Positions 6,441-62,944 of a stretch of DNA of 64,000 nucleotides are shown piece by piece (positions within the stretch are counted from its first letter, which is position 1; every line of letters begins with the position of its first letter). Origin of the DNA: Amphiscolops sp. MND2022 (lineage: Eukaryota). The stretch is taken from the NCBI GenBank assembly GCA_964187785.1, contig OZ076409.1:54066001-54130000 (forward strand). The letters run 5' to 3'. The notes under the pieces were generated by a model. It was not told the origin of the DNA, did no database searches, and saw nothing but the letters and a program-made list of their open reading frames with translations. The translations under genes and the position numbers were made by a program.

Positions 6441-7250
6441 TTTTTAGTCGGCGCTTTTTGTGAAGCAAAACATGTTCGACTCTTACAGTGATCCTTTTTT
6501 TCTCCAGACCACAGACCTCACACTGAAAGGTCCACTCTTTACAGAAACTACTAAAACTACTAAAGCCAAGTCCGGCCAGCAGAAACTTAGGGCAAAAGGT
6601 CCCCCTTTCATTTTCTTTTACTTTTTTAACGTAACCTACAAAACCGGACGAGACTTAAGGGTCCCCATTTCAATTTTTTTTCGGCGCTATGAGATTTTTT
6701 CGAAGTTTTTTTGTCTCCAAAGTTTCCCCCCTTCGATTTTATTGAAGTCCCCCCTTGTAATATCTGAAGTGAAGCGCTATATCCAAAAATTTTGAAGTTA
6801 TATCCGAACTATATTGCGTTTTATTAAAGAGGATGCGGAAGCTCGAAAACAGGAGTTTTTCATGAAAACGTCCTACGCATATTTCGTGAATTCTGAGCCT
6901 TAAATTTTTTGAGCCTTGAATATAGCGCCGACTTTGGACGTTCCCGTCTTGTTTTTATTCAAGACAGACTCGAATGCGACGAAAGTTTTGTTGTTTGTTC
7001 AACTAAACAAATACCTGGGAAACGCATCTAAGTTATTACAAAAGGTTTTCCTTTCATTTTTGATTTTTTAACAACCTACAAAACCGGACGAGACTAAAGC
7101 TTTCAATTTTTTAAGCTCTATGAGACTTTTTTATTAAGGAGGAGTCGGAGGTTCGAAAACAGGAGTTTCTCATTAAAACGTCCTATGTATATTTCAAATG
7201 TGCGCTTTGTGAGCCTTAGATATAGCGCCGACTTTAGACGTTCCCGTCTG
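6441..7250 (+). mobile_element. Helentron/Helitron2-like non-autonomous element (HINE family A), composite with two 3' ends
   Basis: Starts TTTTTAGTCGGCGC. The 3' module GCGCCGACTT..GACG-TTCC-CGTCT ends at ~6953 and recurs at ~7250. Confidence 0.75.
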
Positions 7251-7306
7251 ATTATTGATGAAAGTTTTTGTGTTCGGGAGTTTTATTAGCAGCTAGGATG
7301 TTTCAG

Positions 7307-7521
7307 AAGAAGTACGAAGATAGTGGTCGGCGCAACTCAGTTCCGAGTGTTGGTTCCTCTCCTACCTCGTTGACAGTGAGACCCAAGACTGGCAGCCAGA
7401 CCCAGACTCCAGTCTCGGAGTGCAGTGGCACCCGATTTAGACCCCAGAGTGCCAAGACTAATTACGACATGTGCGTCCTGTGTGACAAACAATGCAACAA
7501 CTTCCTCATGCACGAATGGAG
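7307..7521 (+). CDS. pk: prickle-like exon encoding the first half of the testin/prickle Cys-rich motif (CVLCDKQCNNFLMHEWR)
   Basis: Acceptor TTTCAG ends at 7306; donor AG|GTCAGT at 7521/7522 (phase 2). The peptide matches the C-x2-C-x3-C-x2-F-x2-H-x-W-R pattern of testin/LMCD1/Prickle3 N-termini. Confidence 0.85.
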
Positions 7522-9814
7522 GTCAGTATTCAACATACCATATTTCCATAAATAGGAACCTTTTTCAGGAAAATACCACCCTCCCCCTCCCCACTTTCTT
7601 GTATTTTGTGGTATTGCTTGATAAAAATATTGTTTCAATAGTCAACTGTATGATTTGACATGATGTCAGTGAAATAGAGAAAAAGATTTTTTAAAAGTAA
7701 TATCAAAAAGATATTATACAATTAAATTGAATTTCGTTCTAAAAAGGGGACAGAGCCCATCCTTCATTTCTTTTTTTTCAAAATACTCGCTCATTTGTTT
7801 CCCAGCTTCTTTGTTCACAACGAACCAAAAACTGAAATACCGATTCCGATTCTCTCAAAACTGATGGATGTGTGTCAGAACATTCATGGTTTCTTAAACT
7901 TCGTCTGTAAAATTAAAATGCCACCTTTTCATAATTTCACAAATTAATCACATATAATTCATCTTTTTAACAAGAGCTATCGTGAATCAATCGCAAAACA
8001 TCTGATAATGATTAATTCAAAGCAACTGTTTTTGCTGGCGAAATTATTGAGCAATTTTTGATGCTCGCGAAATTGTTGTTGTCAAAACAAATGTCTTAAT
8101 CGATAAGATGTCCGATTTAGATAGGAATCCACACAGTTTCGTCATATTCATTGCTACAGATATTTAATATTTTCGGTCACAATATTTGGTATGGTTGAAT
8201 ATTTGACATGTGCTGACAAAGGAGCTCAATTCAAAGTCCGTTGAATAAAAGTTTCTTTGAGCCGGCGCTTTAAAGCTGTTAAATAACTATTTTTCAGAAT
8301 CAAACTATTGAAACGTCAAATTGAAAGTTTCAGTTGTTGTGAAAAACAATTGTAGAAAATATAGAGCTAAACATCAGACACATTCGCCGGATAACTATTT
8401 AAAATGATCAAGTAAGCTGTTGAATTGAAAAAAACTTCCAACGAAACTTGTAGTTGGTGAAATGAGAACCCAATCAAAAGACTTGGCCGCCTTGATAGCA
8501 TTCATTCTTTGAGAAAAAAACAAATGGTGACTTTACTTTCAAATTCTAAAGTTCAAGTTATCTACGAGTTCTGCAAAAAAGTTTCGAGAGAAAAATTAAT
8601 GATGTTTGACAGAGGTCAAAATTTATGTTACGAAGTGTTCGCTAAGCACCGTGGTACTTTCTGCTTTTCGAAATGGCCAGAATTTAATAAATGTTGGGAT
8701 TTTCACTTGTGCTACAACCAAAAAAGTTCAAAATCAACCAATTTTGATTTAGTTAACTTAATACCTCTTTGAGATTTTTAACCTGCAACCTACAATGGAG
8801 GCTTATTGGAGGTCGTTGATTTGGAATTAGTAATATCCTAAATTGGGGAAACTTCACAACGAAGAATTTAAAAGGAAAATCCACTTGCTGCTTGGTCGAT
8901 ATTTCCTGTTTCCTTGTGCTTATGTTGAGTGCAGAGCAAAAATCACTCAGAAAAAAAATCAGCCCTTCCCTACCTTCAAGAGGCACTGAATATAAAACAA
9001 TAGAGTAAAAAGTTTTCCAAAAACTTTCTGAATTTTGAAAAATATTTTAGTGAACAAAATTGAATTTTCACAATGTAATGACTGGCAAATTTATGAAAAA
9101 CAACAAAACTCGAGCGTAGCTGATACACTGCTAAATTTGAACAAAAAATTATAATGTTTTAAAACTTTCTGGAGGTTTTGAGACAACCATTTGAGACATT
9201 TTTTTAAATGAAAAAGCATCTAATTTTTGCTGATTTGGCCTTTTCAATATATTAATATTTTTCAAAATGAAGTGCACATATTTTAACATAGACATATGCT
9301 GCGAACATATTTTTTAGTTGTTCAAGTCTGTGGGGAAAATTTCTTACAGCGCGGTCAAAAAGAAATGGGACATGAGAAATATTCTTGCGAACTTACGGTG
9401 CAAAGTGCTCAAAAGCACCCTCGAGTACCTGTTTTATGTTGACACGAAAATTTCCTAAAATTTCAAATAGTTTCGAAGCGTTTTTGTTATAAATTTTTGT
9501 TAGCAAAAATGAAAAGGTTTGAAAATGACGTTCTCGTTTGCAGTAAGATGGGGAGCTGTCTTTCAGATTCAAATTTTAATAGTTGGAAACTAAAAATTTG
9601 TTGATTTTCTTTCAATGTTCTGGATAGGTAGAGTGTTCTGTTCTATCTATAGAAGATTCAATTTTCTGGTGTTGAAAATGGCATTGAAAACATTACTTTT
9701 TCGGAGACGCCATTCTTTCTGTATGTTGTGAAGATGAAGTATACAAGTCGTCTTCCTCCGAGATCATCCATTTATGATGAAGTTTGGAAGGAAGGAGGGA
9801 AGTAAAGTGGGAAG

Positions 9815-12440
9815 TTTTTTCATTCAGATGCAAACATCAAAAGTTTAAATATACATAAATAAATACATTGATGGAATCTGAAAAGGACAGAGAATGAGCT
9901 TATACAGCTCGTCGAGTCTTTGCCCTGAGAATAAATTATGCAGCAACCTAATATACTATTTCCAACTATGGGCAGGTTTATCTTTTTATCTCGCATAAAA
10001 CGGGTAGAGAAAAAAAGTTTGGGTAACGAGATGAAGAAAACAACACGTTTCAGCAGAAAACATTTGAAAAACAAGTTTTTCAAGTCCTGACTATCTTTGA
10101 TGTACAAGTTACATATAGTTTTGAGATAGCGTTTTCTTTGATAATCAGGTAGTGATGAGGTTAGAGGGAAGCAGATCCATACTAGTCAACGAATTGTAGC
10201 ATTTGCGTAGATTGTTTTTCAATTATTTACTTTTCGTGGCTTTTCGACTGTAAATTATGGTTATTAATCATTTCGCAGAACGTCGAGTTTCATACAGATT
10301 CCGATTATCCATTTCATCTCGAAATCTAGCGCAGAGTTTGATCGCAAGTAATTAAAGATTTCGCGAAAATTTCCGATAATGAATATTTCGTAAATTGTCA
10401 GAATGTTCGTTTGTTCGTAAACATCCTCAGGCTCTCAAACTTTTTTTGAAAAAAATGCTCTAAGAATACATACAACGCCGAGCTTCGTCAATGATTTCAA
10501 AACTGTCGTTTTTGTGGTCACTCCCAAAAGTTAATAAACCATAACTGATGATAGTTTTAGCATAAGAATTATAAAAAGTTGAAAGACTTTTCTTCAGGTA
10601 CCTAAACCTGACTCTTTTTAACCCTGGGGGTTTGCCAATTCGGAACGAAATTCACATTTTGAAGAATTGATGGACAGTTTGTTGCAAGCAATCAATTTGT
10701 TATTTCATTTATATCATGTTGAATTGTTGATAAGTTTTGTTTTCGCAGTGGAACAGGGAAGTATCGTCTGAACATATTGCGATTTCACTTTTTGTTGAAC
10801 AAACAGCGGCTAGGTCCGTGAAATAAACTAGAAAAAGGAAAGGCCTTAAAATTGAACACTGAGGAACACCAACAACATTGTTTTGTGACCTGATAAAGGT
10901 TTCCGGAGTGAAACGATCAACACATTCAATCATCGTTCGTGAGAATTTCTCCGTTTCGATTATCGTACGGTGTAGTTCTGTTTAAATTTTTGATCTAACA
11001 AAAAAGAAACCTTAGTGCATTTTCGCCTTTATTACCACGAAGGTCTCTTGCCTTTCGAAGAGAGGGTTTAGTTTTAGTCCACCTGTTGATAGAGGCATCT
11101 CACTTAGAACATTAAAATGTTCACTAATTGTTGTGGGAATTGTCTGCATTTGCATTTGGAAGCTTGTGATGAAATGATCCAAACATTTGTTGGCTGATAT
11201 TTTTGCTGTTTAAAATCAAACGCGTACAGTAACTTTTCATAATCACTTCTGGAATTAGAATCTATAAGTGTATCAAAATTGAAGTCTCCAAAAACAACAG
11301 TCTCTTGTTTTTTCAGGCTTCTCAAACTTGACAATAACTCTTCAAACTGCTGCACAAATGTCTTCTAACTTGTGCCTCTGAGGTCTATAAACGACACAAA
11401 AGTACAGTATTTGGTTGTTACCTAAATCCACCTCTTTTGTAAGACATTCTCTTTTTGTTTCAAAGAGCAAGGGCTTGTACGTAACAGATTCTTGAACAAA
11501 AATGGCCACACCCCCTCTTTCTTGGCATGAGGTGCGAGGTTTGGACTCGAGAAGATGATACCCTGAAAGCGTTAGTTTGTTGATGGAGTCATTTTCGGTA
11601 AGCCACGTTACTGTTGAGGCCATGATTCTAGGCATCTTCGAGAACTTTTCTAGCTCATTGAGCAAACCATCATGAAGACTTTTCAATGATTTATTATTTA
11701 GGCCCAATAGAAGATTGTTGTTTGTTAATAAAGGCTGCTGGTAATTGATTCTTGAAACAAAACATAAAGTTCTCACAAGAAGATGGAGAGAGATGGAGTT
11801 TAATTGATAGAAACGCGATAGTTGCTACTAACAACTTTTTTACTAGCACATAGTTTTGCGTGAAATCTTATGTTAATTACCGAAAATTATAAACTTTCGC
11901 CTTTCTAAGCTACCGTTTTACCAGCTGTATCTGTGGTATTTTGGTCATTTGATTTTTTTGTTGTTGGTGTCTGTGCATCTTCCACTTCACAGCCAGCAAA
12001 GTTCTTCAAAAATACTCCTCATTTTTCATTTTGAAATAGACAAATGATAAGCGCTGGATAAATACCTTTTGGTTTCCCCAGGGGATGACAAGCTCTGAAG
12101 TCTTCAGGGGAGGCGCTCTTATTCAGATAATCAAACAAAATTTGACACTAACCTGGCCTACATTTTTTCCAATTGGAAAATTTGTGTAAAAAAAGAATCC
12201 TTTGATAAATAACACTCCAGTGCCCTTTTCTCCAAATCCTCCACTCTGTTAGTAAGTTGAATAATTTCTTGGTCTCTTTCGGTATGCTTTTGGAACATCA
12301 ATTTGTTGAATAGGTTTCGATAATTTTCATGATCAAATTTTGAGATCACAGTTTGCAAATTTTCAGAGTTGATTTCGGTCGTTGTTGATGTTAAGTTTTG
12401 CTAGAATCTCGTTGTTGATAAACACGACCGCTCAGTGCAA
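9815..12440 (-). mobile_element. Decayed, internally deleted non-LTR retrotransposon (CR1/L2 group)
   Basis: Minus-strand fragments: APE endonuclease (GGVAIFV, CVVYRP, VVFGDFN; 11104-11776), RT (GVPQCSILRPFLFLVYFTDL..SDDTSLF; 10709-10933) and a coiled-coil ORF1-like piece (12158-12358). Many stops and frameshifts; ends approximate. Confidence 0.8.
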
Positions 12441-13304: not shown

Positions 13305-13804
13305 TTTTTAGTCGGCGTTTTCGAAGAAAAACCCGACTCTTACGGTGGCTAGTTTTTTTAGCCTGTTCAACGCGATCGGTCCACTTTTTGTGCATTATGC
13401 ACTTTTACCATATGTACTTAGTACTTCATTTTCAACGCATCGAAAGCCTCTAACAAGCCATTCCAAAGCAGAAGGGTCCCCTTTTCCTTCGGCACTGTGA
13501 GACTGTTCAAATTTCTGATTTTTTTCCGAATTTTTTTTGCTCCAAAGGGTCCCCCCATCAATTTTTTTGATATTTTGCAACAGAATGGATGTTCAAAAAA
13601 TTATAAAGGGTCCCCCTTTTTATATTTTTCGGCACTATGCGACTTACCCGAGACTTGAAAAAAAATTCGAAAAAAATCGGAAACATTTTTACCTCAATTT
13701 TTAGTTTTTTGAGAGCTTTTGTTGTCTACAGTTGTAGAAAAAGTGATTTTCGAGTCTTATTGAGCCTTAGATATGGCGCCGACTTAGGCCGTTCCCGGCT
13801 TGTT
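13305..13804 (+). mobile_element. HINE family A copy (complete, ~500 bp)
   Basis: 5' TTTTTAGTCGGCG...CCCGACT hairpin; 3' GGCGCCGACTTAGGCCG-TTCC-CGGCTTGTT. Confidence 0.8.
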
Positions 13805-15129: not shown

Positions 15130-16165
15130 AAAACACAGAGGCGAAGCCGTGCTTCGCAAACACTTGCGAACATTTGAAGAAAACCAAATAAGCAATATCA
15201 TAGGGAAAACCAAGGGTAAAAGGAGATTAAAAATTCATCAATTTTACAGCGCCAAAAAATACCCGAAGGGATACGCGTAAGCCTCGAAAACCATTCTTCC
15301 CCAACTGAAAACAGCAAAAAACCCATTCTTTCTCAACGGAAAACATTAAACAGAAAATAGAAAAAAATTTCAAAATTTTTCGAAAACATTTTTGATGGTC
15401 TCCGGTAAGTCGCAAAGCCTTGAGGAGTCCTCTCGCAAAACGTTTCGTTTCTTGTAAAAATTGAGCAGGGGCTTCGGTGAAAACAAATTTTAAAAAAGTC
15501 GCATAGAAAAAAGATCGGTCTTTAAAAAAACGGTCTTTTAAAACTAAAAATTGAGAAAAATATTTCCGAACTTTTTCGAATTTTTTTTGAAGTTTCCGCT
15601 AAGTCACATAGTGCCGAAAAATGTGAAAAAGGGACCCTGTAGGATTTTATAACATTCGTTCTGTTGCAAGATATCAAAAAATTGAAATGAGGACGCTTTG
15701 GGGACATTAAAAATTTTTGAAAAAAATAAAGGAGTCTAAAAAAATTTTGAAAAAAATTTAGAATTTTGAACTGTCTCATAGTGCCGAAAATTCTGAAAAA
15801 AGGGACCCTTTGGGATTTTTTAACATTCGTTCTCTTGCAAAATATCAAAAAAATTGAAAGGAGGACTCTTTGGGGACATTTAAAAAATTTCGAAAAAAAA
15901 GTCTCACAAAGCCGAAAAAAGTCTCACAAAGCCGAAAAGTCTCATAGTGCCGAAAAAAGTCAGAACCTTCTGCTTCGGAATACTTGTAAAAAATTAGCGC
16001 ATACCCACGGGTTCGAACACGAAACCTCTGGGTTGAAAAGCAAGCAGCTTACCACTAGACCACGAACGCGTGAAACGTGCGAGTTGCCGCGTGAAATCAG
16101 AGAGTTGTCGCGCGGAAAACAAAGCACCCGCACTTTCCCATAACACTTGCTTATCGCAAGTGTAA
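15130..16165 (-). mobile_element. HINE family B: same architecture and body as family A, with different terminal sequences
   Basis: Inverted pair ACACTTGCGA (15160-15169) / TCGCAAGTGT (16154-16163). 5' hairpin ACACTTGC-TTATC-GCAAGTGT (16143-16163); 3' hairpin GCGAAGC-CGT-GCTTCGC (15141-15157). Body has the GGGACCC and AGTGCCGAAAA motifs of family A. Confidence 0.7.
15997..16069 (-). pseudogene. tRNA-derived segment with A-box and B-box inside HINE family B
   Basis: Minus strand reads GCGTTCGTGGTCTAGTGGTAAG...GTGTTCGAACCCGTGGGTATGCGC: A-box TGGTCTAGTGG and B-box GTTCGAACC at tRNA spacing; stems imperfect. Confidence 0.65.
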
Positions 16166-43007: not shown

Positions 43008-43533
43008 ATGAGCATTGAATACGTGAACTTGCAAAGGTCAAAATACTTGATATTCAATCATTTTGTCTATCTGAAAGATAGAGAATGACAAGGTACCACG
43101 TACTGGAGATGTGAAAACAGAGGCTCTTGCTCAACAAGAATCCATATGCATTGCCATACCGTCGTGAAAGACACCGATAGCCACAACTTTGCCCCAGATG
43201 CTGCAAAAATTGAAATCCTGATAGCTCTCGCAAAAATGTACGAGCTAACAACGACCTCTGATATGATACCGCTGTGCATATTCAGCTCTGTTTCTCTGCA
43301 GCTACCGGACAGTGCTAAAGTGAAACTTCCGGAAGTTTTTTTCCCTGATAAGATCTCTCCGCAAGAAACGAGTTGATACTATTGCGGCACCCCATAAATA
43401 CGAGCGAGACAGCTTCAGATTTCCGGATTCAACCAAGAACCTGCCTTCCTTCGTGCTGTCTGACAGCGTTGGCAATAATCTCCGCTTCATAATCTTTGGC
43501 ACCCCGGCCTCAATAGCTGCTTTGACGTCTTTT
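43008..43533 (+). pseudogene. N-terminal remnant of a FLYWCH-type MULE transposase
   Basis: MSIEYVNLQRSKYLIFNHFVYLKDRE*QGTTYWRCENRGSCSTRIH..SHNFAPDAAKIE (FLYWCH-like), then after a frameshift LIRSLRKKR..FVLSDSVGNNLRFIIFGT; truncated before the DDE core. Confidence 0.75.
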
Positions 43534-45740: not shown

Positions 45741-46182
45741 AACAAGCCGGGAACGGCATAAGTCGGCGCCATATCTAAAGCTCAAAAATAGCAAAAAGAC
45801 TACAAAGTGTCAAGTATTCTCTTTTACAGTACTCGAAAAACAACAACCGAGAATTGGCGCGCCGGGGGACTCTTTCGAATTTTTCAACATCCATTCTGTC
45901 GCAAAACATCGAAAAAATGAGGAGGGACCCTTTGAGAAAAAAAATCGAAAAAGTCTCACACTGCCGAAAAAAAACTGAAAAGGGGATCCTTTAGTCTCGC
46001 CTGATGTTGTATGCTACACTAAAAAAACAACTTTCATATTTCAGTTCCTTGTGCCAAATGGTCTAATTTGGAACCTTAAAGTTCCGTAGAACTTTGTAGA
46101 ACTATTTTGGTCAGTTCGTGTGGATTTATAAAAAAGTCACTAGTATAGTCGCGTTTCACTTTATGAAGCGCCGACTAAAAAA
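45741..46182 (-). mobile_element. HINE family A copy
   Basis: AACAAGCCGGGAACGGCATAAGTCGGCGCC ... GAAGCGCCGACTAAAAAA. Confidence 0.8.
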
Positions 46183-50970: not shown

Positions 50971-51189
50971 TGAGACACAAGCATCGACATGTGTCAATCC
51001 AACAAGTGTCTACGATAAACCTTGGCGAACGATGTGACACAAAACTACCTGCCAATGATCTTATGTTCTGAAGTCATGTACTTACAAGATAGATACACAT
51101 ATGATGATAAAGTACAGTTGCTTGACATAGTTTATGTTACTTTGAATCATTCCATTTTAATTCACTCTTTGAACTTTTCCTGACTTACA
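50971..51189 (+). repeat. 5' LTR
   Basis: TGAGACAC...GACTTACA; reads identical to 56693-56911. Confidence 0.95.
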
Positions 51190-51203
51190 TGGCGCAGTCA
51201 GCA
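51190..51203 (+). promoter_or_regulatory. Primer binding site, likely tRNA-Ser
   Basis: TGGCGCAGTCAGCA directly follows the 5' LTR; complementary to a tRNA 3' end ..UGCUGACUGCGCCA, as recalled for invertebrate tRNA-Ser(AGA). Confidence 0.75.
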
Positions 51204-51217
51204 ATCTGATCAAAACA

Positions 51218-51913
51218 ATGGATAACAACAACACTAATCCGAGCCTAAATGAAGGTGAGCCGAATATATCGGAACGATCATCCAGAACAAACAACACTAC
51301 AACATCGTCAGAACGGATGGAGAAAACCAAATACAAAATTCCCATACCATCAGACAGGGAAACAGACCTCACCAAAATCAATCCCAAAATGTGGTGGGAG
51401 CAGATTTCGGAATACATTTGACATATAACCGAAATCTAGAAGAAATTATCGATGAAGGGACAGAATACATGGATCCCCACACAGTCTTTCACATTAAAGG
51501 TGATGTTATTTGGGCACTTGGCCCAAAGGCCAAGCATGAAATCATGAGAGGCCAGTGGGGCCGTGAACTGAAAGAAGTGAATCTTCCCGAATTACGAACC
51601 CTATTCAAGAAAACTTTCCTCCCTGCAAGAAATGTTTTTCATAGCCGGGCACAGTTCTTTAACATGAAGCAAGAAGATAACGAAACACTCGATGAATACT
51701 GGAAGAGACTCGTAGACATCAAGAGAAAGTGCGACTTTGGCAACATCACAGCAGAGGAAATTATTACATACAAATTTGCATCAACAATAAAAGACAAAAA
51801 AGCCCGTGATAAATTCATAAGAGGCCCCCTGAAATTACAACTCGTTCTCGACACGATAGAACTTGATAATTACAACCGAAAGTACGGTGACAAGAGGCCG
51901 AAAAGCAAAAAAA
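51218..51913 (+). pseudogene. gag: gag (capsid region), disrupted by frameshifts near 51415 and at the A7 run 51907-51913
   Basis: ORF 51218-51421 continues in ORF 51391-52104 (FFNMKQEDNETLDEYWKRL..CDFG, retrotransposon gag-like), then shifts to the pol frame before the zinc knuckles. Confidence 0.8.
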
Positions 51914-54900
51914 GCCCGGAAAGATTCATCAAACAGCTCAACATCCACCGAACTGATCGGTCATACCAACCAGCCACGGAAACGCAAAACAAATTTTACC
52001 GAAAAGAAAAAATTTTCAAACCGGGATTGCCGCTTTTGCGGAAAACCAAACTGGTCAATGGAACATATTTGCCCGGCACGGAAGGCCCAATGCAACAATT
52101 GTAAAAAGATGGGACATTTTGCCAAAGTATGCAAATCCAAGACCGTCAGCCGGATAAAAGAAATGGTTTCATCGGACAGCAGTACCGAACCATGGCCGGA
52201 AATCGATCACATTCAGTCCGTCAACGGTGTGAACCGTATTGACTTTTACAAAGCAATCCTATTGGTCCATGGCCAACCAATAGAATTCATCATTGATACA
52301 GGCTCACCCGTAACCATCATACCTCCAATTATCACACCAAAAGACATAAAGAAAACGACAAAAACTTTTGTTGACGTGAATAAAAACCCCATCAAATTCA
52401 AAGGCGAGGCGATGGTCGAAGTGAAAACGGAAAAAAGTAAAGAGACACTACCTATCCTGATCACAGAGAACAAAAACACGCAACCACTGTTGGGATTAGA
52501 CTGGCTGGACAAATTGGAAATTGGATTACAAGGCAGCAAAAAGACAAATGTGATCCGCTATGTGGAAGAAGACGATAGACGAAAAAAAATTATCAGCGAA
52601 CACGAAGACTTATTCAAAAATAACCACACCATAAAAGACCTAACGATTGACATCCAGCTGAAGGAAGATGTAAAGCCCATACAACAAAAGGGACGACCAG
52701 TTCCCATACACTTTCAAAAAAATGTCCGAGATGAACTAGAGAAACTTATCAAATCGGGACACATCGAGAAAGCGGATGAAACCACAGAAAATTGCTTTAT
52801 TTCCCCCGCTGTCATTACCATCGAAAAGGACAAGTCGGTCAAAATTGCTCTGGATTCAAGAAAACTTAACGAGGCATGCATAAAGCGAAAAGCAGCACTG
52901 CCAAATATGGAGGAATTAATCAGCAAAATCTCCGCTAAAATAACTAACGGCGAAGGCGAAATCTGGATGTCTAAGATAGACCTAGATTACGCCTATGGTC
53001 AGGCAAAATTGGCAAAAGAAACAGCCAAACACTGTGTATTTTCAATTATTGGCGGAGACTTCACTGGTCACTATCGCTTCAAGAAAGGCTTTTATGGATT
53101 ATCCGACATCCCAACGGTATTCCAGGAACACATCGACAAGGTGCTAGAATTCAAAACCCCCGTCTGGCTAGATGACATCATCTGCGTGACGAATGGAAGC
53201 ATTGATGATCATGAAAAAGAATTACGAGAAGTCCTGAAGAAATTGCAAAACGCCGGATACCGAGCCAGTGAAAAGAAAACGGAATTGTTCAAAAAAGAAC
53301 TAACCTGGCTCGGCTACTTTATTAATCAGAAAGGCGTAAAACCAATCAAGGACAAGACGGAGGCGATCACGAAATTAGCCGCACCGAAAAACGCGAAGGA
53401 GTTAAAATCCTTCCTTGGATCGATACAACACTTATCCAAATTCATCAATAACTTGTCAAAGAAAACCGACCGAATGAGGAGATTACTCAAAAAGGATGCC
53501 AAATGGGAGTGGACAACAGAAATAGACGATGACTTTGAACAATTGAAGAAGGAAATTACGGAAGCCCCGTGTTTGGCCCACTTCGACCCAAAAAGGGATA
53601 ACTATATCACAACAGACGCTTGCAACACTGGACTGGGAGCGACCCTGTGGCAGAGGGAAGGTATAGTATTCAGGCCCATCGTTTTTGCCAGCAGATTTTT
53701 AACCGATTGCGAAAGAAAATATGCAATAAATGAACTAGAGCTTTTGGGAGCCATATGGGGATTAGAGCACTTCCGATATTACGTTTACGGTAAAAGAGTT
53801 AATTTGCTAACAGACCACCAGGCACTACAACCGTTACTGAAAAAGAATCGGGCACATAAACAATATAGCGCACGGTTGACTCGTTGGCTGGATAGATTGA
53901 GCCACTTCGATGTTAATATTCAATACACGGCCGGCAAAAACATTCCACTTACGGATTACCTAAGCCGTCATCCGATCGTACCGACCGAAATTGCCGAATT
54001 AGAAAACAAAGCGGACGGACAAAACGAAGCGGAAGCCGACGAAGAGTTCGTCGTTAACCAAATATACGGTCTGTTTGAATTCAATCGAGAGCGAGGAAGC
54101 ATAAAGCGATTCACCGAACAACTGAACGCGAGAGAAAATTCCGACCAATCACAGCGCGACAAAATTTCATGCGAACAGAACTCAAACACTCACTTGCTCA
54201 AAACTTCACCGCCGCCAGTTAACATTATCAATCGCGAATCATTAAATTCAAAAATGGACAAAGTCAACGGCATTGACATGAATTTTATTTTCAAGAAAAG
54301 GGGCCACTCCCCAGAAACTAAACGCCTGTGGATCGAAAGAAACCACCTACTAAAGCCGGATCGGACACGAATTGTCGGGAAAGGCAAGGAAAGTGAACGG
54401 ATACAGGAGTATCGACCAAATCAGGCCAGCAGAAAAAGGATCGCAGAGATCAACATCAAAATCTACAACCGCTTCTTCCGATACTGCGAAACACTCGAGA
54501 CGACACCCCTGTTAGAATACCAGCAAAACAACAACGAATCTTGGCTGCAGAATAATCAATCAGATGGAGAAAGCGAGACCAGCCACATCAAACGAGACAA
54601 GTGCCCCACAAACGCTTTAAAGAAATTCAAGAAGCACGAAACTGTAAACTTGATCCGACTTAAACAGACAGCAATAAAAAACACACTCAGCAGCGATCAA
54701 AAGCAAGGCACAGAAGAAGCCATCAAAAGAGCGGAAAAGGATTTCGCGCTAGGTTTTCCACTACTTGTCGACGAAACAGCACGAGATATAAAAATGCTCA
54801 ATGCAATCGCGGCCATCGAAAACCAACAACCGGATAGCATTTTCTATCCCTATCGCCCACACCGGTCACATCTGTCCACGAGATTTGGCCTATTGTTCTA

Positions 54901-56563
54901 CAACGACAGGATAGTGATCCCGGAGAACATGCAGACAACGGTGATAGCCATGTTACATCACGGACACATATCGGCGGGAAAAATGGAAAAATTAGCCGAA
55001 GCCTTCTGGTGGCCAGGAATGAACCGCGAAATCCCCGAGAAAACCGAAACCTGCCCAAGCTGTAGAGCCGCAGGTAAGAATCTTGTTACTCAAATTCCGT
55101 TCACGGAGAAAAACAATTTAGATATTTTAACGGAACCCAATCAAGAAATTCAATTGGATTTCGCCGGTCCAATCAAATCAAAAACACGCGGCGACGTATA
55201 CATTTTAGTAGCAATTGACCGTTTTAGCAAATGGCCGACCGCACATATTTGCAAAAGCGCGGACAAACGGACCGTCAAAAAATTTTTAACTAAATATTTT
55301 ACGGACAACGGGATACCACGGGTTATTCGAACCGATAACGGTAGCTGCTTTAAAAGCATCGAATTCAAACAATTCTGTAAAGATCAAAATATTAAACGTA
55401 TACGGTGCACTCCAAACTTACATACCGGCACCGGTCTGGTCGAACGAGCTATCCGGTCGATTAAATCACTTACACGAGCAAACATGGCAGACGGCTTAAC
55501 CTTTGAAGATAGTGTCCAATTGGCGATAAGAACAATAAGACAAACGCCACACAGCAAATTGAAAATGACACCTTTCCAAATGCACTTAGGTAGAAAACCG
55601 CGCACCGCTCTGATCAATTTAATAGACAAGCCGGAATGTCTACTCTCTAATTGGAAGAGAACGTTGACCAATTACGTTTTAGCCCAACCAACAGAACTAC
55701 AGGTCGTCACTATCAATGATGCAGGAGGAGAACTGGCCGACTACCTGGTGCTAAACGAATCAAAGAAAAAAGGACGTTCGGTAAGCCGGGATTTTAAAAA
55801 CTACCAATTTTTTGAGAAGGAGAATAAACCGAATTCCATGAAATGTGGTTTTAAAACAAATAAGGTTTTAACAGCGGTAGCAGAAACAGGGCATACGGTA
55901 ACTACCTCCGAAGGGAGGGTAATACACAAAAAATTGGCATCAAAACCCCTGAAATTTCAGACACAACGAAAACCTGAAGAACAAAGACGACCAACCAATA
56001 GATGCCGCAGATGCGGAAAATTCAGCAGTGGCGAGTGGTGTGAGACGCACTTACGTCTCGAGACGGCCAGACAGGACAGTAACAACAACGAACCCAGTAC
56101 CAGTCATACCACAATTCCGACCATGCCGTCAAAGAAGCGACCATACAGCCGTGTGGTACTGTACGACTCCTCCAGCAACGATTCCGGACCGACAAATAAT
56201 CAAGCCGATACGACCACCTCAGAAGAGGAAGACGCCGACGACATCACACTCAAGGACATGATCGGCCGAGAAGTCGAACGCATACGGTCGGAAACACCGA
56301 TGCCGTCCTCCCCAATCGGCTGTAGCACGGAGCTGATCCCGCCCGAAGATACAGCACAACCGGACACATCCGGAACGCCAATCCGCAATCAAAGCACTTC
56401 CGGCATAGAAACCGCACCTCAGGATGTCACAGGTAAAATACGGCTAAAACAAAATGCTAACGGGGAAAATAATCCACTAGATTTAACCATAGAACCACGC
56501 AGATCCGAAAGGATAAAAACTGCAAAAAGAACAGTTAAACTAGGCGGTGTTGAATATTTTTAA
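51914..56563 (+). CDS. pol: NC-Pol polyprotein: Cys/His knuckles, aspartic protease, RT, RNase H, integrase
   Basis: Open ~1550 aa: CRFC..H.C / CNNCKKMGHFAKVC, IDTGS, KIDLDYAY, WLDD, TDAC..ELE..TDH..DYLSR, H-H-C-C, and QLDFAG / RTDNG / VER. Confidence 0.93.
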   Translation, partial: ARKDSSNSSTSTELIGHTNQPRKRKTNFTEKKKFSNRDCRFCGKPNWSMEHICPARKAQCNNCKKMGHFAKVCKSKTVSRIKEMVSSDSSTEPWPEIDHIQSVNGVNRIDFYKAILLVHGQPIEFIIDTGSPVTIIPPIITPKDIKKTTKTFVDVNKNPIKFKGEAMVEVKTEKSKETLPILITENKNTQPLLGLDWLDKLEIGLQGSKKTNVIRYVEEDDRRKKIISEHEDLFKNNHTIKDLTIDIQLKEDVKPIQQKGRPVPIHFQKNVRDELEKLIKSGHIEKADETTENCFISPAVITIEKDKSVKIALDSRKLNEACIKRKAALPNMEELISKISAKITNGEGEIWMSKIDLDYAYGQAKLAKETAKHCVFSIIGGDFTGHYRFKKGFYGLSDIPTVFQEHIDKVLEFKTPVWLDDIICVTNGSIDDHEKELREVLKKLQNAGYRASEKKTELFKKELTWLGYFINQKGVKPIKDKTEAITKLAAPKNAKELKSFLGSIQHLSKFINNLSKKTDRMRRLLKKDAKWEWTTEIDDDFEQLKKEITEAPCLAHFDPKRDNYITTDACNTGLGATLWQREGIVFRPIVFASRFLTDCERKYAINELELLGAIWGLEHFRYYVYGKRVNLLTDHQALQPLLKKNRAHKQYSARLTRWLDRLSHFDVNIQYTAGKNIPLTDYLSRHPIVPTEIAELENKADGQNEAEADEEFVVNQIYGLFEFNRERGSIKRFTEQLNARENSDQSQRDKISCEQNSNTHLLKTSPPPVNIINRESLNSKMDKVNGIDMNFIFKKRGHSPETKRLWIERNHLLKPDRTRIVGKGKESERIQEYRPNQASRKRIAEINIKIYNRFFRYCETLETTPLLEYQQNNNESWLQNNQSDGESETSHIKRDKCPTNALKKFKKHETVNLIRLKQTAIKNTLSSDQKQGTEEAIKRAEKDFALGFPLLVDETARDIKMLNAIAAIENQQPDSIFYPYRPHRSHLSTRFGLLFYNDRIVIPENMQTTVIAMLHHGHISAGKMEKLAEAFWWPGMNREIPEKTETCPSCRAAGKNLVTQIPFTEKNNLDILTEPNQEIQLDFAGPIKSKTRGDVYILVAIDRFSKWPTAHICKSADKRTVKKFLTKYFTDNGIPRVIRTDNGSCFKSIEFKQFCKDQNIKRIRCTPNLHTGTGLVERAIRSIKSLTRANMADGLTFEDSVQLAIRTIRQTPHSKLKMTPFQMHLGRKPRTALINLIDKPECLLSNWKRTLTNYVLAQPTELQVVTINDAGGELADYLVLNESKKKGRSVSRDFKNYQFFEKENKPNSMKCGFKTNKVLTAVAETGHTVTTSEGRVIHKKLASKPLKFQTQRKPEEQRRPTNRCRRCGKFSSGEWCETHLRLETARQDSNNNEPSTSHTTIPTMPSKKRPYSRVVLYDSSSNDSGPTNNQADTTTSEEEDADDITLKDMIGREVERIRSETPMPSSPIGCSTELIPPEDTAQPDTSGTPIRNQSTSGIETAPQDVTGKIRLKQNANGENNPLDLTIEPRRSERIKTAKRTVKLGGVEYF

Positions 56564-56692
56564 CAGTGATCCATTTAGGAACTGAGTATACATTCACCAC
56601 TCCGAGGAGATACCCAATTACTCCTTTTCCCCGAATCAAGAACTACCCCCCTCAGCACGACTGGTTTCCCTGAAACGCCACGGAGGAGGGAG

Positions 56693-56911
56693 TGAGACAC
56701 AAGCATCGACATGTGTCAATCCAACAAGTGTCTACGATAAACCTTGGCGAACGATGTGACACAAAACTACCTGCCAATGATCTTATGTTCTGAAGTCATG
56801 TACTTACAAGATAGATACACATATGATGATAAAGTACAGTTGCTTGACATAGTTTATGTTACTTTGAATCATTCCATTTTAATTCACTCTTTGAACTTTT
56901 CCTGACTTACA
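56693..56911 (+). repeat. 3' LTR
   Basis: Preceded directly by the polypurine tract GGAGGAGGGAG (56682-56692). Confidence 0.95.
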
Positions 56912-57929
56912 AGGTGTCATTTCTTTGTTGCACCGTGGAAGATTGCGGCAATAAGGTAAAATCGAGTGATAATTTTAGATTTAAACTCAATATTACAACT
57001 GTTTGCTTAACCAAATTATCATGATTACCCGGGTGATCAGTTATGCAGCCAAAAACTGGAAAAAAATTAAACTCTTGAAAACCTAGATATTAGTGTTTGA
57101 AATATAGTCGGAAATAAAAACTAAGCGCTTTGAAAGTAAACATCAAAGAAAATATAGAATGAAAAGCGCAAATCCAATAACAGTAATTTCACTGACAATA
57201 TGCTTTTGGCCATTCCTTGCCTCGGAAAAATACTATTTTTAGGAAAATGTACAATTAGTGAGGAAATTTCGAAATGAAACAAACAATCTTGATCAAAAGG
57301 CCGCCTGTTGACAATAGTCATTAGTATTAGTGATTTGTTTTAGTTTTGTTCGTAAGTACAGATCGCAGACAACGTGTTATGGTGAATTTTCAAATCAGAT
57401 TAGACTTGAGAAGTCCCTAGAGTACATGCGATAATCCTCCTAAGGGTGACTCTGTTTATGCATAATCAAGGAGACAAATTTGTGAGTTTCCTGTTGCGTG
57501 AGGTTACCTAGAAAAAAAACTAGTTTTCAGATTTGCCGCGGCATTCATTTTAATTAGATTGATTTTTTCACTGTTCCTTTGTAAAACAAAGGCTGGTAGA
57601 ATTTTGTTAAGGTCTAAAACAACTCTAAAACAAAGCAAGCGTGTTTTTACATCTTCCAGTAGGACTTGGTGGATCATCGGTGAGCAGCGGCGGATTGCGA
57701 TTGATTGCCAACCCGGGTTTTCCCCTGAAAATATACTACTTATTAAAGGACATTTCACATAATTTATATGGATATTTTTTTCTAAATTTTGAATATACCA
57801 TACTAACGTTTTTAAAAAACATTTTCAATTTTCGTTTTCTTGAGAAACGAAAAATCTTAGTTTAAGCACGGGAACTTTTTCAATCTTTACTTCAAACTAA
57901 TTATGCCAATATCAATTAGAATACAAAAA

Positions 57930-59209
57930 GTACTTTCCACTTGGACTACCTTACGACCGGACCTGAAAAGCAAGAGTACCTGGGTTCGAGTCCCGCATTA
58001 AACCAGAAAAGTGTCAAGCTTGCAAAGAAAGACTAAAGACCCCCCCCCCCCTTTGTGACGTTTTCAGCATAATGCGACTTTTTCCTGATTTGTTTTAAAA
58101 ACCTGGAGAGCGCCTTCTTTGACACTTAGCAGAAACAAAAAAAAACGTTTCGCAAGCATAGAAGGTACAGTGCGACTTACAGAAAAAATTTTCCTCCGCA
58201 TTTGACAAAAGACGAGTTGGAAGTTCAAAAATATTACGCTATAACCATAATTGACGTTTTATCCGAACAATATTGCGTTTACCTACGGAGCAAACGAAGG
58301 TTCAAAGAAAAGCGCTCTCATTTGTCCCAGCACACTTTTATCCAAATTTTGACGTTAAATCTGAATTAAATTGCGTTTTATTAAGGAGGGGCCGAGGCTC
58401 AAAAAAGCACACTCCAATATGGCGCAGCACGTTATATCCGAACTTTTCACGATATATTCGAAGTAATTCACGTTCTACTAAGGAGTGGTGGAGGTTGCGC
58501 TATATCAGAAATACTGGACTATAATCGAATTTTGTTTTTTGTAGGACCGGTGAATTGAAACATTTCTAAGGACATTTCTATAGCTTTACTTAGTATGATC
58601 TAACTACCACTTGGCTTTGGGGATTAACTCAGACTTTCAGGCCTGGTTACAAGGTCTTAAAAACGGCAGTACGAGAGTTCAAGTCTCAGACTAACCCAAA
58701 AAAATTGTCTCCAACAGTAGAGGGCAGACCAATGTGTCCCCCTTTGGGATTTTTTGGCACTGTGCTACTTTTTTCAGCAGTTTTTTTTCAACCGAAGTGT
58801 CCCCTTTAGTTTTTCAACTAAAACAAAGCGTTTTGCGAGAGTAGAGGGTCACCGTAGGTTTTTCAGCACAATACGACTTACCGATTTTGAAATTCCTGTA
58901 TAAAAACGTTTTCGACTTGTTTTTCAACTTTCCGTTTCATGAAGTCTTCTGTTTCCTAAGGGTAACCTCGCTGATGATTTCTTTGGTTCTGTGAAAATGA
59001 TGCGAGATTTCTCAATAATTTCGGAAATGACTTACGGTATATTTTGACATTGCGAATTTTCCCAAAGTGTACCACTTGCACTTTCATGAATGTTTCCATT
59101 AGAGGGGAAAATGGTTTCTCATAGGTATCTTTTGGGTATCTTCGGCACTGTTAAATTGAACTCATTTGAACCTTGAGCGGGGCCAACTTGGGCCGTTCCT
59201 GGCTTGTTT
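57930..59209 (+). mobile_element. Cluster of degenerate HINE-related copies with tRNA-like modules
   Basis: GGGTTCGAGTCCCGC at 57982-57996, GAGTTCAAGTCTC at ~58675, body motifs, and a degenerate 3' module GGGCCGTTCCTGGCTTGTTT ending at 59209. Confidence 0.55.
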
Positions 59210-59784: not shown

Positions 59785-60563
59785 TTTATAGTCGGCGCTT
59801 TTTGTTACAAAATGTACCAGACTATCACTTACAATGGCAAGTTTTTTCTCAGACCACAGACCTCACACTGACTAGTCCACTTTTTGAGCCACTTTTATGT
59901 CGCTTGGCCGTCAGTTGGACACGTTAAGATGCGTGCTTCGCAAGCAGGAGGTCGTGTGTTCAAATCCCACTCAGGACTAAAAAGTTTTTCGTTTGTAGAT
60001 CTTGGCGGGATGGAGTGGTTGAACTTTTTTGGCACTGTGCGACTTTTTTTTGAAAAAAGTTCCACATATTTTAGTTTTTAGACGGCGCTTTTCTTAAGAA
60101 AAGAGCCCGACTATTACAGTCACTCGTTTTTTTCTTTAAGACAGACTCGAAGCGACGAACGTTCAGTAACTAAAGGAAACTAAACGAATACCCGGGAAAC
60201 GCAACTAAGGCCCCCTTTGGTTTTTTACTTTTTAAACGTAACCTACAAAACTGGACGCGACTAAAGGGTCCCCCCTTTCGGTTTTCTGGCACTGTGCTAC
60301 TTTTTCTCGAAATATTTGTCTCCATAGGGTCCCTTCTTCGATTTTATTTCAGCCTTAGATATAGCGCCGACTTGAGACGTTCCCGTCTTGTTTGATATTT
60401 TCAGTTACCGAAAAAATGTTTTTCAAGCCCATAAGACACCTTTCCGTTTTTGGTAAACTGAAATCCATGATAATATCCCAGAAAACCACCCTGAGCACAA
60501 TAATGCGACTGCGCGTTTCTAAGCCTTAAGCGAGGCGTTAGGTTGAGACGTTCTCGTGTTGTT
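59785..60563 (+). mobile_element. HINE family A copy with tRNA-like module, containing a second complete copy at 60075-60392
   Basis: Head AGTCGGCGC at 59790; inner head TTTTTAGACGGCGC at 60075 with 3' module AGACG-TTCC-CGTCTTGTT; degenerate outer 3' module at ~60520-60563. Confidence 0.7.
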
Positions 60564-61925
60564 TGTTAATTATCTTGATAACTATCCAAACCAAACCAAA
60601 ATTTCCCTCCTTGAACCAAAATTTCTCTAGGGCGTTTTTTAGAGCAAGATGAAGGGCATTTTATTTTACAAAAATGATTTGACTTGAATTTACATAACAG
60701 GTTTCGGGAGTTTAGTTGGGCAGACGTATTTACACGTGAAATTCCACCAAAGTGGTTTAGGGGTCCATAGGTAATGAATGCACAAAATGACGTCATAGAT
60801 TCCCATGCGTGGTTAATGGTCCATATTTCAGCCTTCTCAGCGGGACCACCAAGTATTGCGTAATTCTCCTTAATTATGTGCTAATCCTTTTCTAACTACT
60901 CCTTCTAAAGATTTTATAACTATTCCACCAAAAACTGTATGTATATTGTTGCGCAGTATAATTAACAAGGCGCAAAACAGAATCTACTATCTCAATTATA
61001 CCATTCAGCAAGTTATTTGGAATTTATGCAAAAAGCGAGCAACATGTGATTCAACAGTAGTCCACTAATTTCACAAAAATGTACTTTAATTGAAAAGTAT
61101 GTATCTGACAGGAGTTTGTATCTAATTCTGTTCGTCTCCTAGACTTGAATTTTCTTGTCAAACCCCCGTTGCTAATGTTTTTGTTACTCTCGTACCTCTA
61201 TTTGTAAACACAACCGGCTGCGGATCAAACTGGGGGTTGTTACACGCTGAACTACCCTCTGCCACCAGACGCCCTGGGCGGAAATGACTGGTTCCGTTTC
61301 GAAAGTACTTGTCATTTATAACAACACAGTCCACGTGAAACAGTCAATCACGTACTTTTTGTACATCTTATCTCAGCACTGTCAATTAAAACACTGATTG
61401 CATTTTTGTAATTCTACTTGTAGTCTGAAACGCGTCATGGCGCTCTGAATGGCTCTCGTGCAGACCTCCCGCAGACACTGGCTGATTCGCTTTTACTAGC
61501 GTTCAAACACTTGATTAGTTAATTTCTGCTCGAACTTTGCTTTAATTATAATTGCTTGAGTTGAGGCTTCAAAATTTTTCTGGTCCCAATTAGACGCTGA
61601 AGAAGAAAGCTCTGCGTTTCGCAGCGGTTTCAAAACTCCAATTACTATCAATTGTGCAGTTTGTCAGCCAATTTGTATCAAAGTTATTTGTCATTATAAC
61701 ATAACTACTGTATTACTCAATTATAAATCAAAATCATGTCTCGTCAAAATACCTCGCAAATACCAATCGGACCTTTTGCTCAATTTCAAATATTTTGTCA
61801 TTAGCTCATTGGCATACGTAATTTTCATTACCAATACTACACATATTACTGCTTCGATTGTTATAAATACACGACCATTAAAAGTTGTAAATTATAACGA
61901 ATCAAAAAAGTTATAACTTTTACAG

Positions 61926-62130
61926 AAGACAGTGTGTCACGTGCGGTTGCCCGTCTTCCGGTCACATGGCGCAACAGGTTCACATGAACAAAGTGATCAA
62001 TCACCTGTTCAACGATGGGGGCATCCAGGCACCCCAGAAGCAATCCATTTCGTCTCTCTCAGACACTGACAGCGGATGTTACGTCATGGAAGATTACGCC
62101 TGGGTACCAGCTGGTCTCAACCCCAAACAG
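61926..62130 (+). CDS. pk: prickle-like exon: second half of the Cys-rich motif (RQCVTCGCPSSGH) and start of the PET domain (SDTDSGCYVMEDYAWVPAGLNPKQ)
   Basis: Acceptor CTTTTACAG ends at 61925. The first base completes the AG-A Arg codon left by the 7521 donor. The peptide resembles Prickle SDDDSGC..EEYAWVPPGL.PEQV. Donor CAG|GTATGC at 62130/62131 (phase 0). The rest of the gene is not seen in the window. Confidence 0.9.
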
Positions 62131-62539
62131 GTATGCTTCAAAACATTTCCCAACTTCTCGAATTTCATATTTCAAAGCTGATTGGTCCCGAGGCAGTCAT
62201 TGCGGTGAGCAAAGTAAGGATTTGAACATCATAAAAACTTTAATTCTCTCTTTTGGTTCTAATGGTTGTGTAATTTGACACCCAAGTTTAGACCCCATGT
62301 AGTCCACCGGTCACGGTCGACATATATGACCTCTTTTGGGCATCGGCCCATTTTTATCTTGTCCAATTTCTCAGCGTAGTTTCTTTTCTCCAACTGTCCA
62401 AAGATGCTTACTAGGGGACACCTAGGGGCTCAAAGGGCTTCTTTCTCTCTCAAAGGGCTTCTCTATTCTCACCAGAAACATCAAAAACCAAAACTTTCCT
62501 GCTTCTTTTCCACCAGAAACCATAAAACCAAATCCAGAA

Positions 62540-62944
62540 GCCTTTTGTGAAAAAAAATCCAAAAAATTCAGGCAGTGCCGAAAAAACGCAAAAGGTGATC
62601 TTTTGGACTCAAAAACGTTTTCTCCAATTCAAAAATATAAAAAGGGCAACTCTTTTGAAAAATACTTTTTTTCGAAAAAAAGTCTCACAGTTCTGAAAAT
62701 AACCTAGGTTTGGAAAAAGTCTATTTTATCCGAATAGGTAAGTGAAAGAAGGAATGGGGAGACCCTTCAAACTAACTTGTCAAATTTCTAGAATTTTGGA
62801 TTTTGGCATTCGGCATGAAAAAGGTCACTGCCACAGTTAAGGTCACTGCCACAGTTAAGGTCACTGCCACTATTGAGAAAGAAGGAAAAAACGAAAAGTC
62901 AAGACAATAGTGGCGTTTTATTTCACAAAGCGCCGACTAAAAAA
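62540..62944 (-). mobile_element. Degenerate HINE family A copy including an 18-bp tandem repeat (62821-62870)
   Basis: AAAGCGCCGACTAAAAAA at the right end; AAGGTCACTGCCACAGTT x2.8. Confidence 0.6.

Follow-up and report, generated by a model that had tools for sequence, protein, structure and literature searches.

Probable non-autonomous Helitron2/Helentron-type elements, with apparent self-nesting, in the introns of an acoel Prickle-like gene

The window analyzed here, a 64,000-nt stretch of contig OZ076409.1 from a marine acoel worm, raises the question of which type of mobile element gave rise to the short repeats that make up ~16% of its sequence. By homology, all copies of the family in the window are housed in introns of a Prickle-like gene, and their intronic position, claimed in a preliminary description of this DNA, was borne out by the likeness of the flanking exons to a Prickle-like protein. 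The exon at 1353-1991 (forward strand) shares 47% identity with P0002 residues 313-507 and is followed by a GT donor at 1992, the exon at 7293-7521 (forward) matches P0002 residues 622-638 weakly (E = 0.03; acceptor position approximate), and the exon at 61926-62130 (forward) holds the start of the PET domain and splices in frame to the previous exon over an intron of ~54.4 kb. We assign the family, with a probability of roughly 0.88, to the non-autonomous Helitron2/Helentron-type (HLE2, HINE) rolling-circle transposons, as a set of old subfamilies that share their ends, apparently nest within one another and in some copies carry tRNA-like cargo.

Ends and units of the family

Scoring by weight matrix revealed 23 3′ modules in the window (scores 32-85; best of 20 Markov shuffles 6.2), four of which sit in the second copy of a 3.1-kb tandem duplicate (22041-25177 and 25178-28265, 99.2% identical), so that 19 are independent; one module is cut by an N gap at 31466-31665. 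The preliminary count of more than 20 thus stands only when decayed and duplicated copies are included, but was inflated because the tandem duplicate had been counted. The 3′ pattern given at the time is one base short and, typed literally, has no matches even with three substitutions; when any two bases are allowed behind GCGCCGACTT, it returns 19 matches at no more than three mismatches and none in 100 shuffles. Profile searches (sense hits, E < 0.01) located 21 5′ heads, 16 of them independent after removal of four in the duplicate and one exact 59-bp head duplication, in agreement with the many heads described before. Exact GCGCCGACT sites number 26 in the window, 14 in tails, 12 in heads and none elsewhere. 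Absent from the preliminary description were the count-inflating duplication, the self-nesting, the internal tRNA-like segment and a ~60-bp central subrepeat.

A head could be paired with 15 of the 19 tails, and the pairs mostly bound units of 313-610 bp. The size range first proposed, 300-650 bp, describes the simple units (313-544 bp, and one of at least 607 bp that is cut by a gap) but not a unit of ~1.65 kb or the compounds of 0.8-1.7 kb. ATG-initiated open reading frames reach 107 aa inside elements and 172 aa in a nested stack; those included in the Pfam scan returned no domain match. The search for Rep-helicase ORFs suggested earlier was carried out on the window, where neither a Rep nor a helicase domain was found in 60 scanned ORFs. 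Endonuclease-like and RT-like fragments at 10709-11824 were considered as a Helentron endonuclease and rejected, with no Pfam hit; judging from their motifs, we take them to be a LINE remnant. DNA pattern scans gave no matches in viral contigs, none in a first set of metagenomes and one (L001) in a second, which was dismissed as chance, lying inside bacterial-type ORFs and resembling the window over only 27-36 bases.

The HLE2 assignment is a structural one, drawn from the sequence of the ends, and was made with criteria from PMC3627910, PMC4067079 and PMC11417382. All terminal features of Helitron2 in Bao and Jurka (PMC3627910) were tested and found in the family. The inverted repeats (ATIRs) are 9-10 bp long, one copy at the 5′ terminus and the other set back ~19 bp from the 3′ end, much as previously described (terminal 5′, ~20 bp subterminal 3′). 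Over 12 head-tail pairs they agree at 9/9 positions in seven and at 6-8 in four more, the weakest being an outer head-tail pair with 4/9 matches, and the element at 42354-42881 bears a complementary change at the same position of both repeats. Comparison with an empty site places a single T before the 5′ repeat, and a 5′ hairpin of ~35 nt is built on this T and the ATIR (z below -1.5 in 11/14 heads, mean -2.7). The small hairpin noted behind the 3′ repeat was recovered as a stem of 4-5 bp in which 87.8% of cells are paired, compared with 32-50% in slid controls. One of its pairs is C-G in 10/18 tails and A-T in 6/18, a compensatory change confined to one pair among related sequences; on three of five measures the hairpin is equaled by 6-8 of 500 shuffles, and on the other two it does not rise above them. 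With ATIRs, 5′ and 3′ hairpins and a T start all present, the Helitron2/Helentron non-autonomous layout proposed at the outset is supported. In place of the 5′ TC, 3′ CTRR and A/T insertion of canonical Helitron1, the elements begin with T-AG.. and end with ..CTTG-T, within T-runs.

The same ends could be read as those of a MITE that is moved by a DDE transposase through cut and paste and duplicates a TT target, which was the first reading of pearl, DTC84 and DINE-1. Short inverted repeats, noncoding interiors, T on both sides and an empty site that differs by exactly two T would all suit such an element. However, in none of the 12 pairs examined is the 3′ repeat terminal, unlike the DDE-type arrangement; it lies ~19 bp inside the element, followed by a conserved, covarying hairpin; the 5′ repeat is hidden in the 5′ hairpin, and DINE-1, which has the same layout, has since been reassigned to the Helentrons. 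We therefore regard a MITE as very unlikely.

Insertion sites and copies

As had been noted, the elements sit in T-runs: five T precede the ATIR in 10 of 12 heads and six in the other two, and at least two T follow 18/18 tails, where the TT belonged to the seed motif. The reported lack of a target-site duplication (TSD) held for 8 of 10 flank pairs, the remaining two having near-repeats of 6-7 nt, compared with 2% of native T-runs (post hoc p ~0.016); in a gapped version of the test the figures were 3/10 and 8%. When joined flanks were compared with the window, the nested and minisatellite cases were the only spanning matches among the matches listed. The single good empty site in the window is that of the inner elements of the stack, whose joined flanks align with 60099-60159 of an intact copy over 64 columns (86%, E = 4e-15) and differ there by two extra T only. 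These could equally be T's of the element or a 2-bp TT duplication, the same ambiguity that has been discussed for DINE-1 (PMC4067079, PMC2374699). The flanks are consistent with T^T insertion without TSD, as in HINEs (PMC4067079).

Complete elements lie at 13309-13803 (forward, 495 bp, flanks with a 6-nt near-repeat), 22341-22716 (forward, 376 bp, a divergent subfamily, duplicated at 25478-25853), 34283-34824 (forward), 41522-41981 (reverse) and 45742-46177 (reverse). The copy at 34283-34824 sits within an arm of a 14-15 bp minisatellite, of which the inverted arm at 33770-33857 provides a rough empty site. One element (31666-32272, reverse) has lost its 3′ end to a 200-N gap, another (62450-62939, reverse) comprises a 5′ head and body for which a tail was not found, and two decayed 3′ modules (29416-29465 and 50148-50197, both forward) are present for which a head was not found.

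The mechanism that we propose follows HLE2 biology. A Rep-helicase encoded elsewhere in the genome would nick the 5′ end and peel off one strand as far as the 3′ repeat and hairpin, and the copy would go in between T and T, leaving the target unduplicated.

Bodies, tRNA-like cargo and apparent nesting

The subfamily bodies are 68-85% alike and the ends are common to all. A central motif spaced at ~60 bp occurs in 0-5 copies per element and in 17 of 19 spans, and all 38 of its matches fall inside family spans. A tRNA-like segment, homologous among the five copies that carry it, always has the same internal place, 167-198 bp into the element; most copies lack it. Two complete elements on the reverse strand carry it, at 40372-40915 (B box 40711-40723) and 42354-42881 (B box 42671-42683), as does a forward element at 59789-60562 (segment at 59913-59970) that is split by a complete 313-bp element at 60079-60391. 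An old forward element at 38064-39711, with a decayed head (E = 6e-5) and extra internal DNA, retains a tRNA-like remnant near 38210-38270. An old decayed cluster at 57900-59208 (forward) has two tRNA-like segments, at 57982 and 58675, together with central subrepeats; its weak head (E = 3.3) lies near 58490-58530, and its tail occupies 59159-59208. ARAGORN found no tRNA genes in the window, and Rfam gave seven weak matches over the whole window, none at the gathering score. Of four 151-base pieces, two matched only the tRNA model of Rfam, at 14.7 and 15.5 bits against a gathering score of 29, while in the other two tmRNA models were matched by the T-arm only, beside unrelated weak matches, one of which, to a microRNA model, outscored tmRNA. 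The segments can therefore be no more than decayed relics of tRNAs and are not genes. The tRNA-derived segment would have been captured once, by an ancestor of some of the subfamilies, and carried since as cargo.

The tRNA-like segments and the 3′ hairpin raise the alternative that the family is a SINE of tRNA origin that has a LINE-type 3′ stem-loop and multiplied by retrotransposition. This reading would also accommodate the four of 19 tails without a clear head, the LINE remnants nearby and a reverse-strand fragment at 15400-16070, in which central subrepeats but not ends of the family were found and which is preceded by a tRNA-like head at 16008-16069. That head was rejected as a homologue of the other five segments (profile E = 6.1). 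What was found is not the 5′ tRNA head, A-rich or repeat tail and TSD of such a SINE: the tRNA-like part is internal by 167-198 bp and missing from most copies, a sharp 5′ head complementary to the 3′ repeat accompanies 15/19 tails, TSDs are not consistent, and, of the four tails that lack a head, three rank with the most decayed. An A5 run follows none of 18 tails, in line with the earlier observation that a poly(A) tail is lacking. A SINE origin is accordingly extremely improbable in our estimation.

Returning to the HLE2 assignment, the segment would be significant only if transcribed or under selection. We consider doubtful, but worth stating, a reading in which the family has retained a working Pol III module (a tRNA-derived B box, then a T-run), through which its copies, by being transcribed or by binding TFIIIC, reach the germline or the Rep-helicase, and in which it favors the T-run behind its own head as a safe place to insert. 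Were this true, the family would be a DNA transposon with a SINE-like promoter that forms new subfamilies via site-specific self-nesting.

Nesting is clearest in a three-deep stack, in which three heads come first and three body+tail units follow. In the second copy (26331-28049, reverse) the heads H0, H1 and H2 occupy 28049-27880 and the inner, middle and outer units extend to 27546, 26980 and 26331; the first copy (23194-24965, reverse) has four heads, one an exact 59-bp duplicate, before its three body+tail units. Each of the three bodies is of a different subfamily, joining the outer head to the outer body restores an intact-type junction, and the tails differ from the consensus by five mismatches in the outer unit and one in each of the inner two. 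The intact reference for the outer element is the 313-bp copy at 60079-60391, whose head is the nearest to the outer head (89%); a rough comparison over 45 nt scored the start of the outer body at 71% with another copy and 67% with this proposed reference. In the stack, newcomers appear to have entered the T-run that directly follows the head of an element already in place. The T-run behind each ~55-bp head would serve as a target for related elements, and repeated insertion there would generate head-head-head/body-tail stacks, while use of inner ends as start or stop would yield compound copies. One compound, at 6445-7252 (forward), stops ~40 bp short of an exon and consists of a head, body and tail (6445-6952) and a second, headless body and tail (6953-7252) that begins directly behind a T-run.

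A family of HLE2 type might instead have acquired its stacks by tandem duplication of heads and body-tail units, through slippage, unequal exchange or rolling-circle concatemers, as the exact head duplicate in one of the two duplicate blocks, the 89% likeness of H1 to H2 and the two tails with one head in 6445-7252 would suggest. H1 itself may be a head duplication, because it is nearest to H2 (89%) and not to the heads of elements whose bodies match the middle unit. Yet the bodies come from three different subfamilies, the outer head and body rejoin to an intact-type junction, and concatemers would be expected to repeat one sequence head to tail, in full or truncated at an end, and not to show a row of heads with the bodies behind them. 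Tandem duplication as the source of the stacks is thus rather unlikely.

Significance and relation to known systems

Taken simply as an HLE2 family of known type, the family is unremarkable; self-insertion of Helitron2 has already been proposed for Fusarium. It would extend the range of the HLE2 group to the Xenacoelomorpha, in whose genome papers, as searched, the word Helitron was not found and LTR elements are emphasized. That ~16% of the window belongs to the family suggests that repeat libraries for such genomes have missed a large class. The three-deep stack would be a clear case from nature of what the self-insertion model proposes for multi-headed Helitron2, and makes that model testable via genome-wide stack counts.

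Helitron2 elements have ATIRs of 8-15 bp, the 5′ copy 0-2 bp from the end inside a 5′ hairpin and the 3′ copy 20-30 bp from the end before a hairpin, with a T start and T/T insertion, and Helitron-1N1_CRe of Chlamydomonas inserts after TTTT (PMC3627910, PMC11417382). The acoel family resembles Helitron2 (Bao and Jurka 2013; HLE2 in HELIANO) in repeat length, placement, hairpins, T start and T/T insertion. Its 3′ repeat stops ~19 bp short of the terminus, which puts it at the bottom of the published 20-30 bp range. According to their descriptions, HINEs, DINE-1 (PMC4067079, PMC2374699) and oyster Cg_HINE (PMC7492417) are likewise noncoding, with subterminal inverted repeats, a 3′ palindrome, T-rich targets, central tandem repeats between conserved end modules, and shared ends with divergent bodies. 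Helentrons and HINEs in the strict sense are distinguished by an autonomous partner whose Rep-helicase is accompanied by an apurinic endonuclease domain. The repeats here are 9-10 bp long, compared with 12-15 bp in mite HINEs and 13 bp in DINE-1, a microsatellite is absent from the elements and the central repeat is ~60 bp and decayed; DINE-1 reportedly has neither tRNA similarity nor Pol III boxes, whereas some acoel copies have a tRNA-like segment. The stack is closest to the composite FoHeli elements of Fusarium oxysporum, in which serial short 5′ termini were attributed to self-insertion and the subsequent use of either the inner or the outer ends (PMC5148889), and the likeness lies in the several short 5′ termini in a row. 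FoHeli has multiple 5′ ends, one 3′ end and one nested example, whereas the acoel stack has three heads and three tails, and its insertion point, unlike that in FoHeli, is the T-run behind the head.

Terminal modules and hairpins

The short non-coding Helitron2/HINE-type (HLE2) repeats of the window are most probably a non-autonomous family that relies for its copying on a Rep-helicase acting in trans (probability roughly 0.88). The 3' pattern given in the preliminary description had one base missing and, as written, returned 0 matches even when three substitutions were allowed; once corrected by leaving two bases free behind GCGCCGACTT, it was found at 19 sites (≤3 mismatches) and at 0 in 100 shuffles. 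A weight matrix built from the pattern seeds located 23 3' modules (tails), the weakest genuine one scoring 32 against a top score of 6.2 in 20 Markov-shuffled windows. Four of the 23 belong to the second copy of a ~3.1-kb tandem duplicate (99.2% identical), leaving 19 independent modules; the earlier count of "more than 20" thus stands for the total and falls for independent modules. The two duplicate copies (22041-25177 / 25178-28265) differ mainly in homopolymers, plus an extra 59-bp head (5' end module), and may have arisen by recent duplication or, as an assembly artefact, from two haplotypes. A head profile gave 21 sense matches at E<0.01, 16 of them independent, and all 26 exact GCGCCGACT sites fall in tails (14) or heads (12), none elsewhere. 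When we paired ends from module, body and head matches, 15 of the 19 tails were joined to a head; the tails at 7253, 29465, 50197 and 59208 lack a clear head, and the head at 62943 lacks a tail. Family-related DNA amounts to 10.5 kb (16.4% of the window), ~2.1 kb thereof inside the duplicate. A 200-N assembly gap (31466-31665) interrupts the 3' hairpin of one element.

Of 12 head-tail pairs, seven have 5' and 3' repeats that agree at 9/9 positions and four have 6-8 matching positions; one outer pair, which is decayed, has 4. The copy at 42354-42881 carries a complementary change at the same position of both repeats, a single case that is only suggestive. DNA folding places a 5' hairpin in the first 42 bases, the 5' repeat pairing with bases ~25-35 downstream; the 14 heads have a mean z of -2.7, and 11 of them fall below -1.5. 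In the 3' hairpin, 87.8% of cells are paired over 18 tails versus 32-50% in slid controls, and one pair is C-G in 10 tails and A-T in six. Compared with 500 shuffles, three measures were equalled by 6-8 shuffles and two were not above shuffles; because the tails are mutually related, these statistics represent few events.

Target sites and probable self-nesting

The T-run ahead of 12 well-preserved heads comprises five T in 10 and six T in two, a preference for exactly five that is not significant (p=0.06); this count omits the altered heads at 34283, 38064 and 59789, the outer head of the nested stack discussed below and the duplicated head. All 18 tails have at least two T downstream, TT having belonged to the seed motif, and an A5 run follows 0 of 18. 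After T-run removal, eight of 10 flank pairs share no repeat longer than 3 nt, and the other two (13309 and 60079) show 6- and 7-nt repeats displaced from the element ends, compared with 2% of 865 native T-runs reaching 6 nt (post hoc p ~0.016); a gapped flank test scored ≥6 in 3/10 pairs versus 8% of controls. Across these flank pairs no consistent TSD is seen. Occasional short target duplications are compatible with these figures, and are reported for some Chlamydomonas Helitron2 (PMC3627910).

The best empty site is internal to the family. When the inner elements are removed from a stack of nested copies at 26331-28049 (-), the rejoined head and body align with an intact copy (60099-60159; E=4e-15, 86% across 64 columns) apart from two additional T. 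These are equally explained by a T^T site that received an element beginning and ending in T, or by TT duplication; the DINE-1 literature sets out the same ambiguity between own T's and a TT duplication. A TT-duplicating MITE would account for the two extra T just as well, yet it is a poorer fit than HLE2 and very improbable. A second junction is offered by the copy at 34283 within a minisatellite arm, whose inverted partner arm aligns through the junction at 80% with four extra bases. These 14-15 bp minisatellite arms (33770-33857 and 34216-34860), an inverted pair with one family copy inserted, are probably a foldback-type element; a second foldback or MITE family is likely represented by other tandem units of 14-15 bp that contain GC and form inverted pairs (42156-42248, 43828-43948, 37507-37585, 47505-47548).

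The stack consists of three heads followed by three body+tail units, every body beginning directly behind a T-run. Its outer head is nearest to that of the intact copy (89%), and its outer tail is the most decayed (five mismatches versus one and one). Against clean nesting count the middle head, which is nearest to the inner one (89%), one extra exact head copy in the duplicate block, and a crude 45-nt test of the outer body in which the reference body ranked second (67% versus 71%). The same tail-to-body junction recurs at 6445-7252 (82% over 211 bases) with the outer head missing, suggesting a compound copy that starts at an inner head and ends at an outer tail, and a further nested copy (60079-60391) is inserted at a different T-run. 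Formation of the stacks by duplication rather than by insertion is considered unlikely. For Fusarium Helitron2 that carry several 5' ends, self-insertion had already been put forward (PMC5148889, section 16), and Xenopus is known to have elements with twin left ends.

Element bodies and the tRNA-like segment

Element bodies are 68-85% similar across aligned stretches, with modules mixed among copies. A central motif at ~60-bp spacing, resembling the central repeats described for HINEs, is present in 17 of the 19 spans, with as many as five occurrences in one element; every one of its 38 matches at ≤1 mismatch lies inside family spans (21% of the window). A Pfam scan of 60 of the 127 window ORFs detected no Rep or helicase domain.

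Five homologous tRNA-like segments (B boxes at 40711, 42671, 57982, 58675 and 59956), all in the element's own direction, are each recovered by a profile of the rest (E=1e-9 to 3e-3); a possible remnant at 38210 reaches E=0.04 at best. Measured from the 5' end, the B box is at 167-198 bp in the three copies that have a clear head; two decayed copies have it at about 179 and 185 bp. These segments supplied four of six matches in a neutral T-arm scan and five of 11 in a looser B-box scan. Rfam support is weak: tRNA is the sole match of 59913-59970 (14.7 bits, below the gathering value of 29), and two other segments match only the tmRNA T-arm. Since position and strand are fixed, the segment appears to be a single inherited capture, of only putative function, rather than separate SINE insertions. 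A tRNA SINE as the identity of the family is a poorer fit than HLE2 and very improbable. A short conserved motif, which on the opposite strand looks like the A box of a tRNA, stands immediately upstream of the segments (40372-40915, 57925-57950, 58605-58625 and others) and also in several copies without one. A sixth tRNA-like stretch (16008-16069) is not homologous to the five. In the region 15400-16070 (-), a head that resembles a tRNA and has both an A box and a B box precedes family central subrepeats, without family ends; the region is possibly a SINE of its own, or else a fragment revealing the source of the body modules.

Genomic setting and relation to known Helitrons

Of 10 candidates, two proved to be relatives of exon 61926-62130, and the one that carries a name is a Convolutriloba macropyga protein with PET and LIM domains, from which we read the host gene as putatively Prickle-like. 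This protein matches three collinear exons in the window (1353-1988; 7472-7522, weak; 61921-62130) at 47-76% identity, with GT-AG borders and the reading frame kept across the join; from the ordered matches, borders and in-frame join, most family copies would lie within a single ~54.4-kb intron. By the same matches the host is an acoel akin to C. macropyga but not that species. Neighbouring elements include a young full-length Ty3/gypsy LTR retrotransposon at 50969-56911 (+), with LTRs of ~220 bp (99.6% identical), TG...CA ends, a 5-bp target duplication and a gag ORF overlapping, in a different frame, a 1567-aa protease-RT-RNase H-integrase ORF, and a Tc1/mariner element at 48223-49489 with identical 27-bp terminal inverted repeats and its transposase across three overlapping ORFs. 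Broken endonuclease-like and reverse-transcriptase-like frames at 10709-11824 (-), which from their motifs we take to be a LINE remnant, had no Pfam match; nor had a short frame at 43000-43400 (+), whose YWRC..C..RIH motif we presume to be FLYWCH zinc finger-like, perhaps a Mutator-type remnant.

The ends and flanks, the part of the mechanism visible in the sequence, agree with the Helitron2-type reading of the preliminary description, which was correct and its observation real. Following the literature, a Rep-helicase partner would act in trans by nicking and then strand displacement, and copying would stop at the 3' repeat. Titles and abstract openings, with most subscription journals outside the search, contained no description of Helitrons in acoel genomes (an acoel may figure in the species table of HELIANO) or of tRNA-derived parts in Helitrons; either may already be in print. 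A term search of the PMC9911081 supplement, an excerpt of which gives LTR elements as 51.75%, found neither "helitron" nor "rolling", and PMC4224331 has no whole-word match for tRNA, SINE or pol III. The literature consulted comprises PMC3627910, PMC11417382, PMC4067079, PMC7492417, PMC3879986, PMC2374699, PMC9911081, PMC13650328, PMC10565955 and PMC5148889. The family is a further member of the already known Helitron2 group, to which the stack and the tRNA-like cargo are modest additions.
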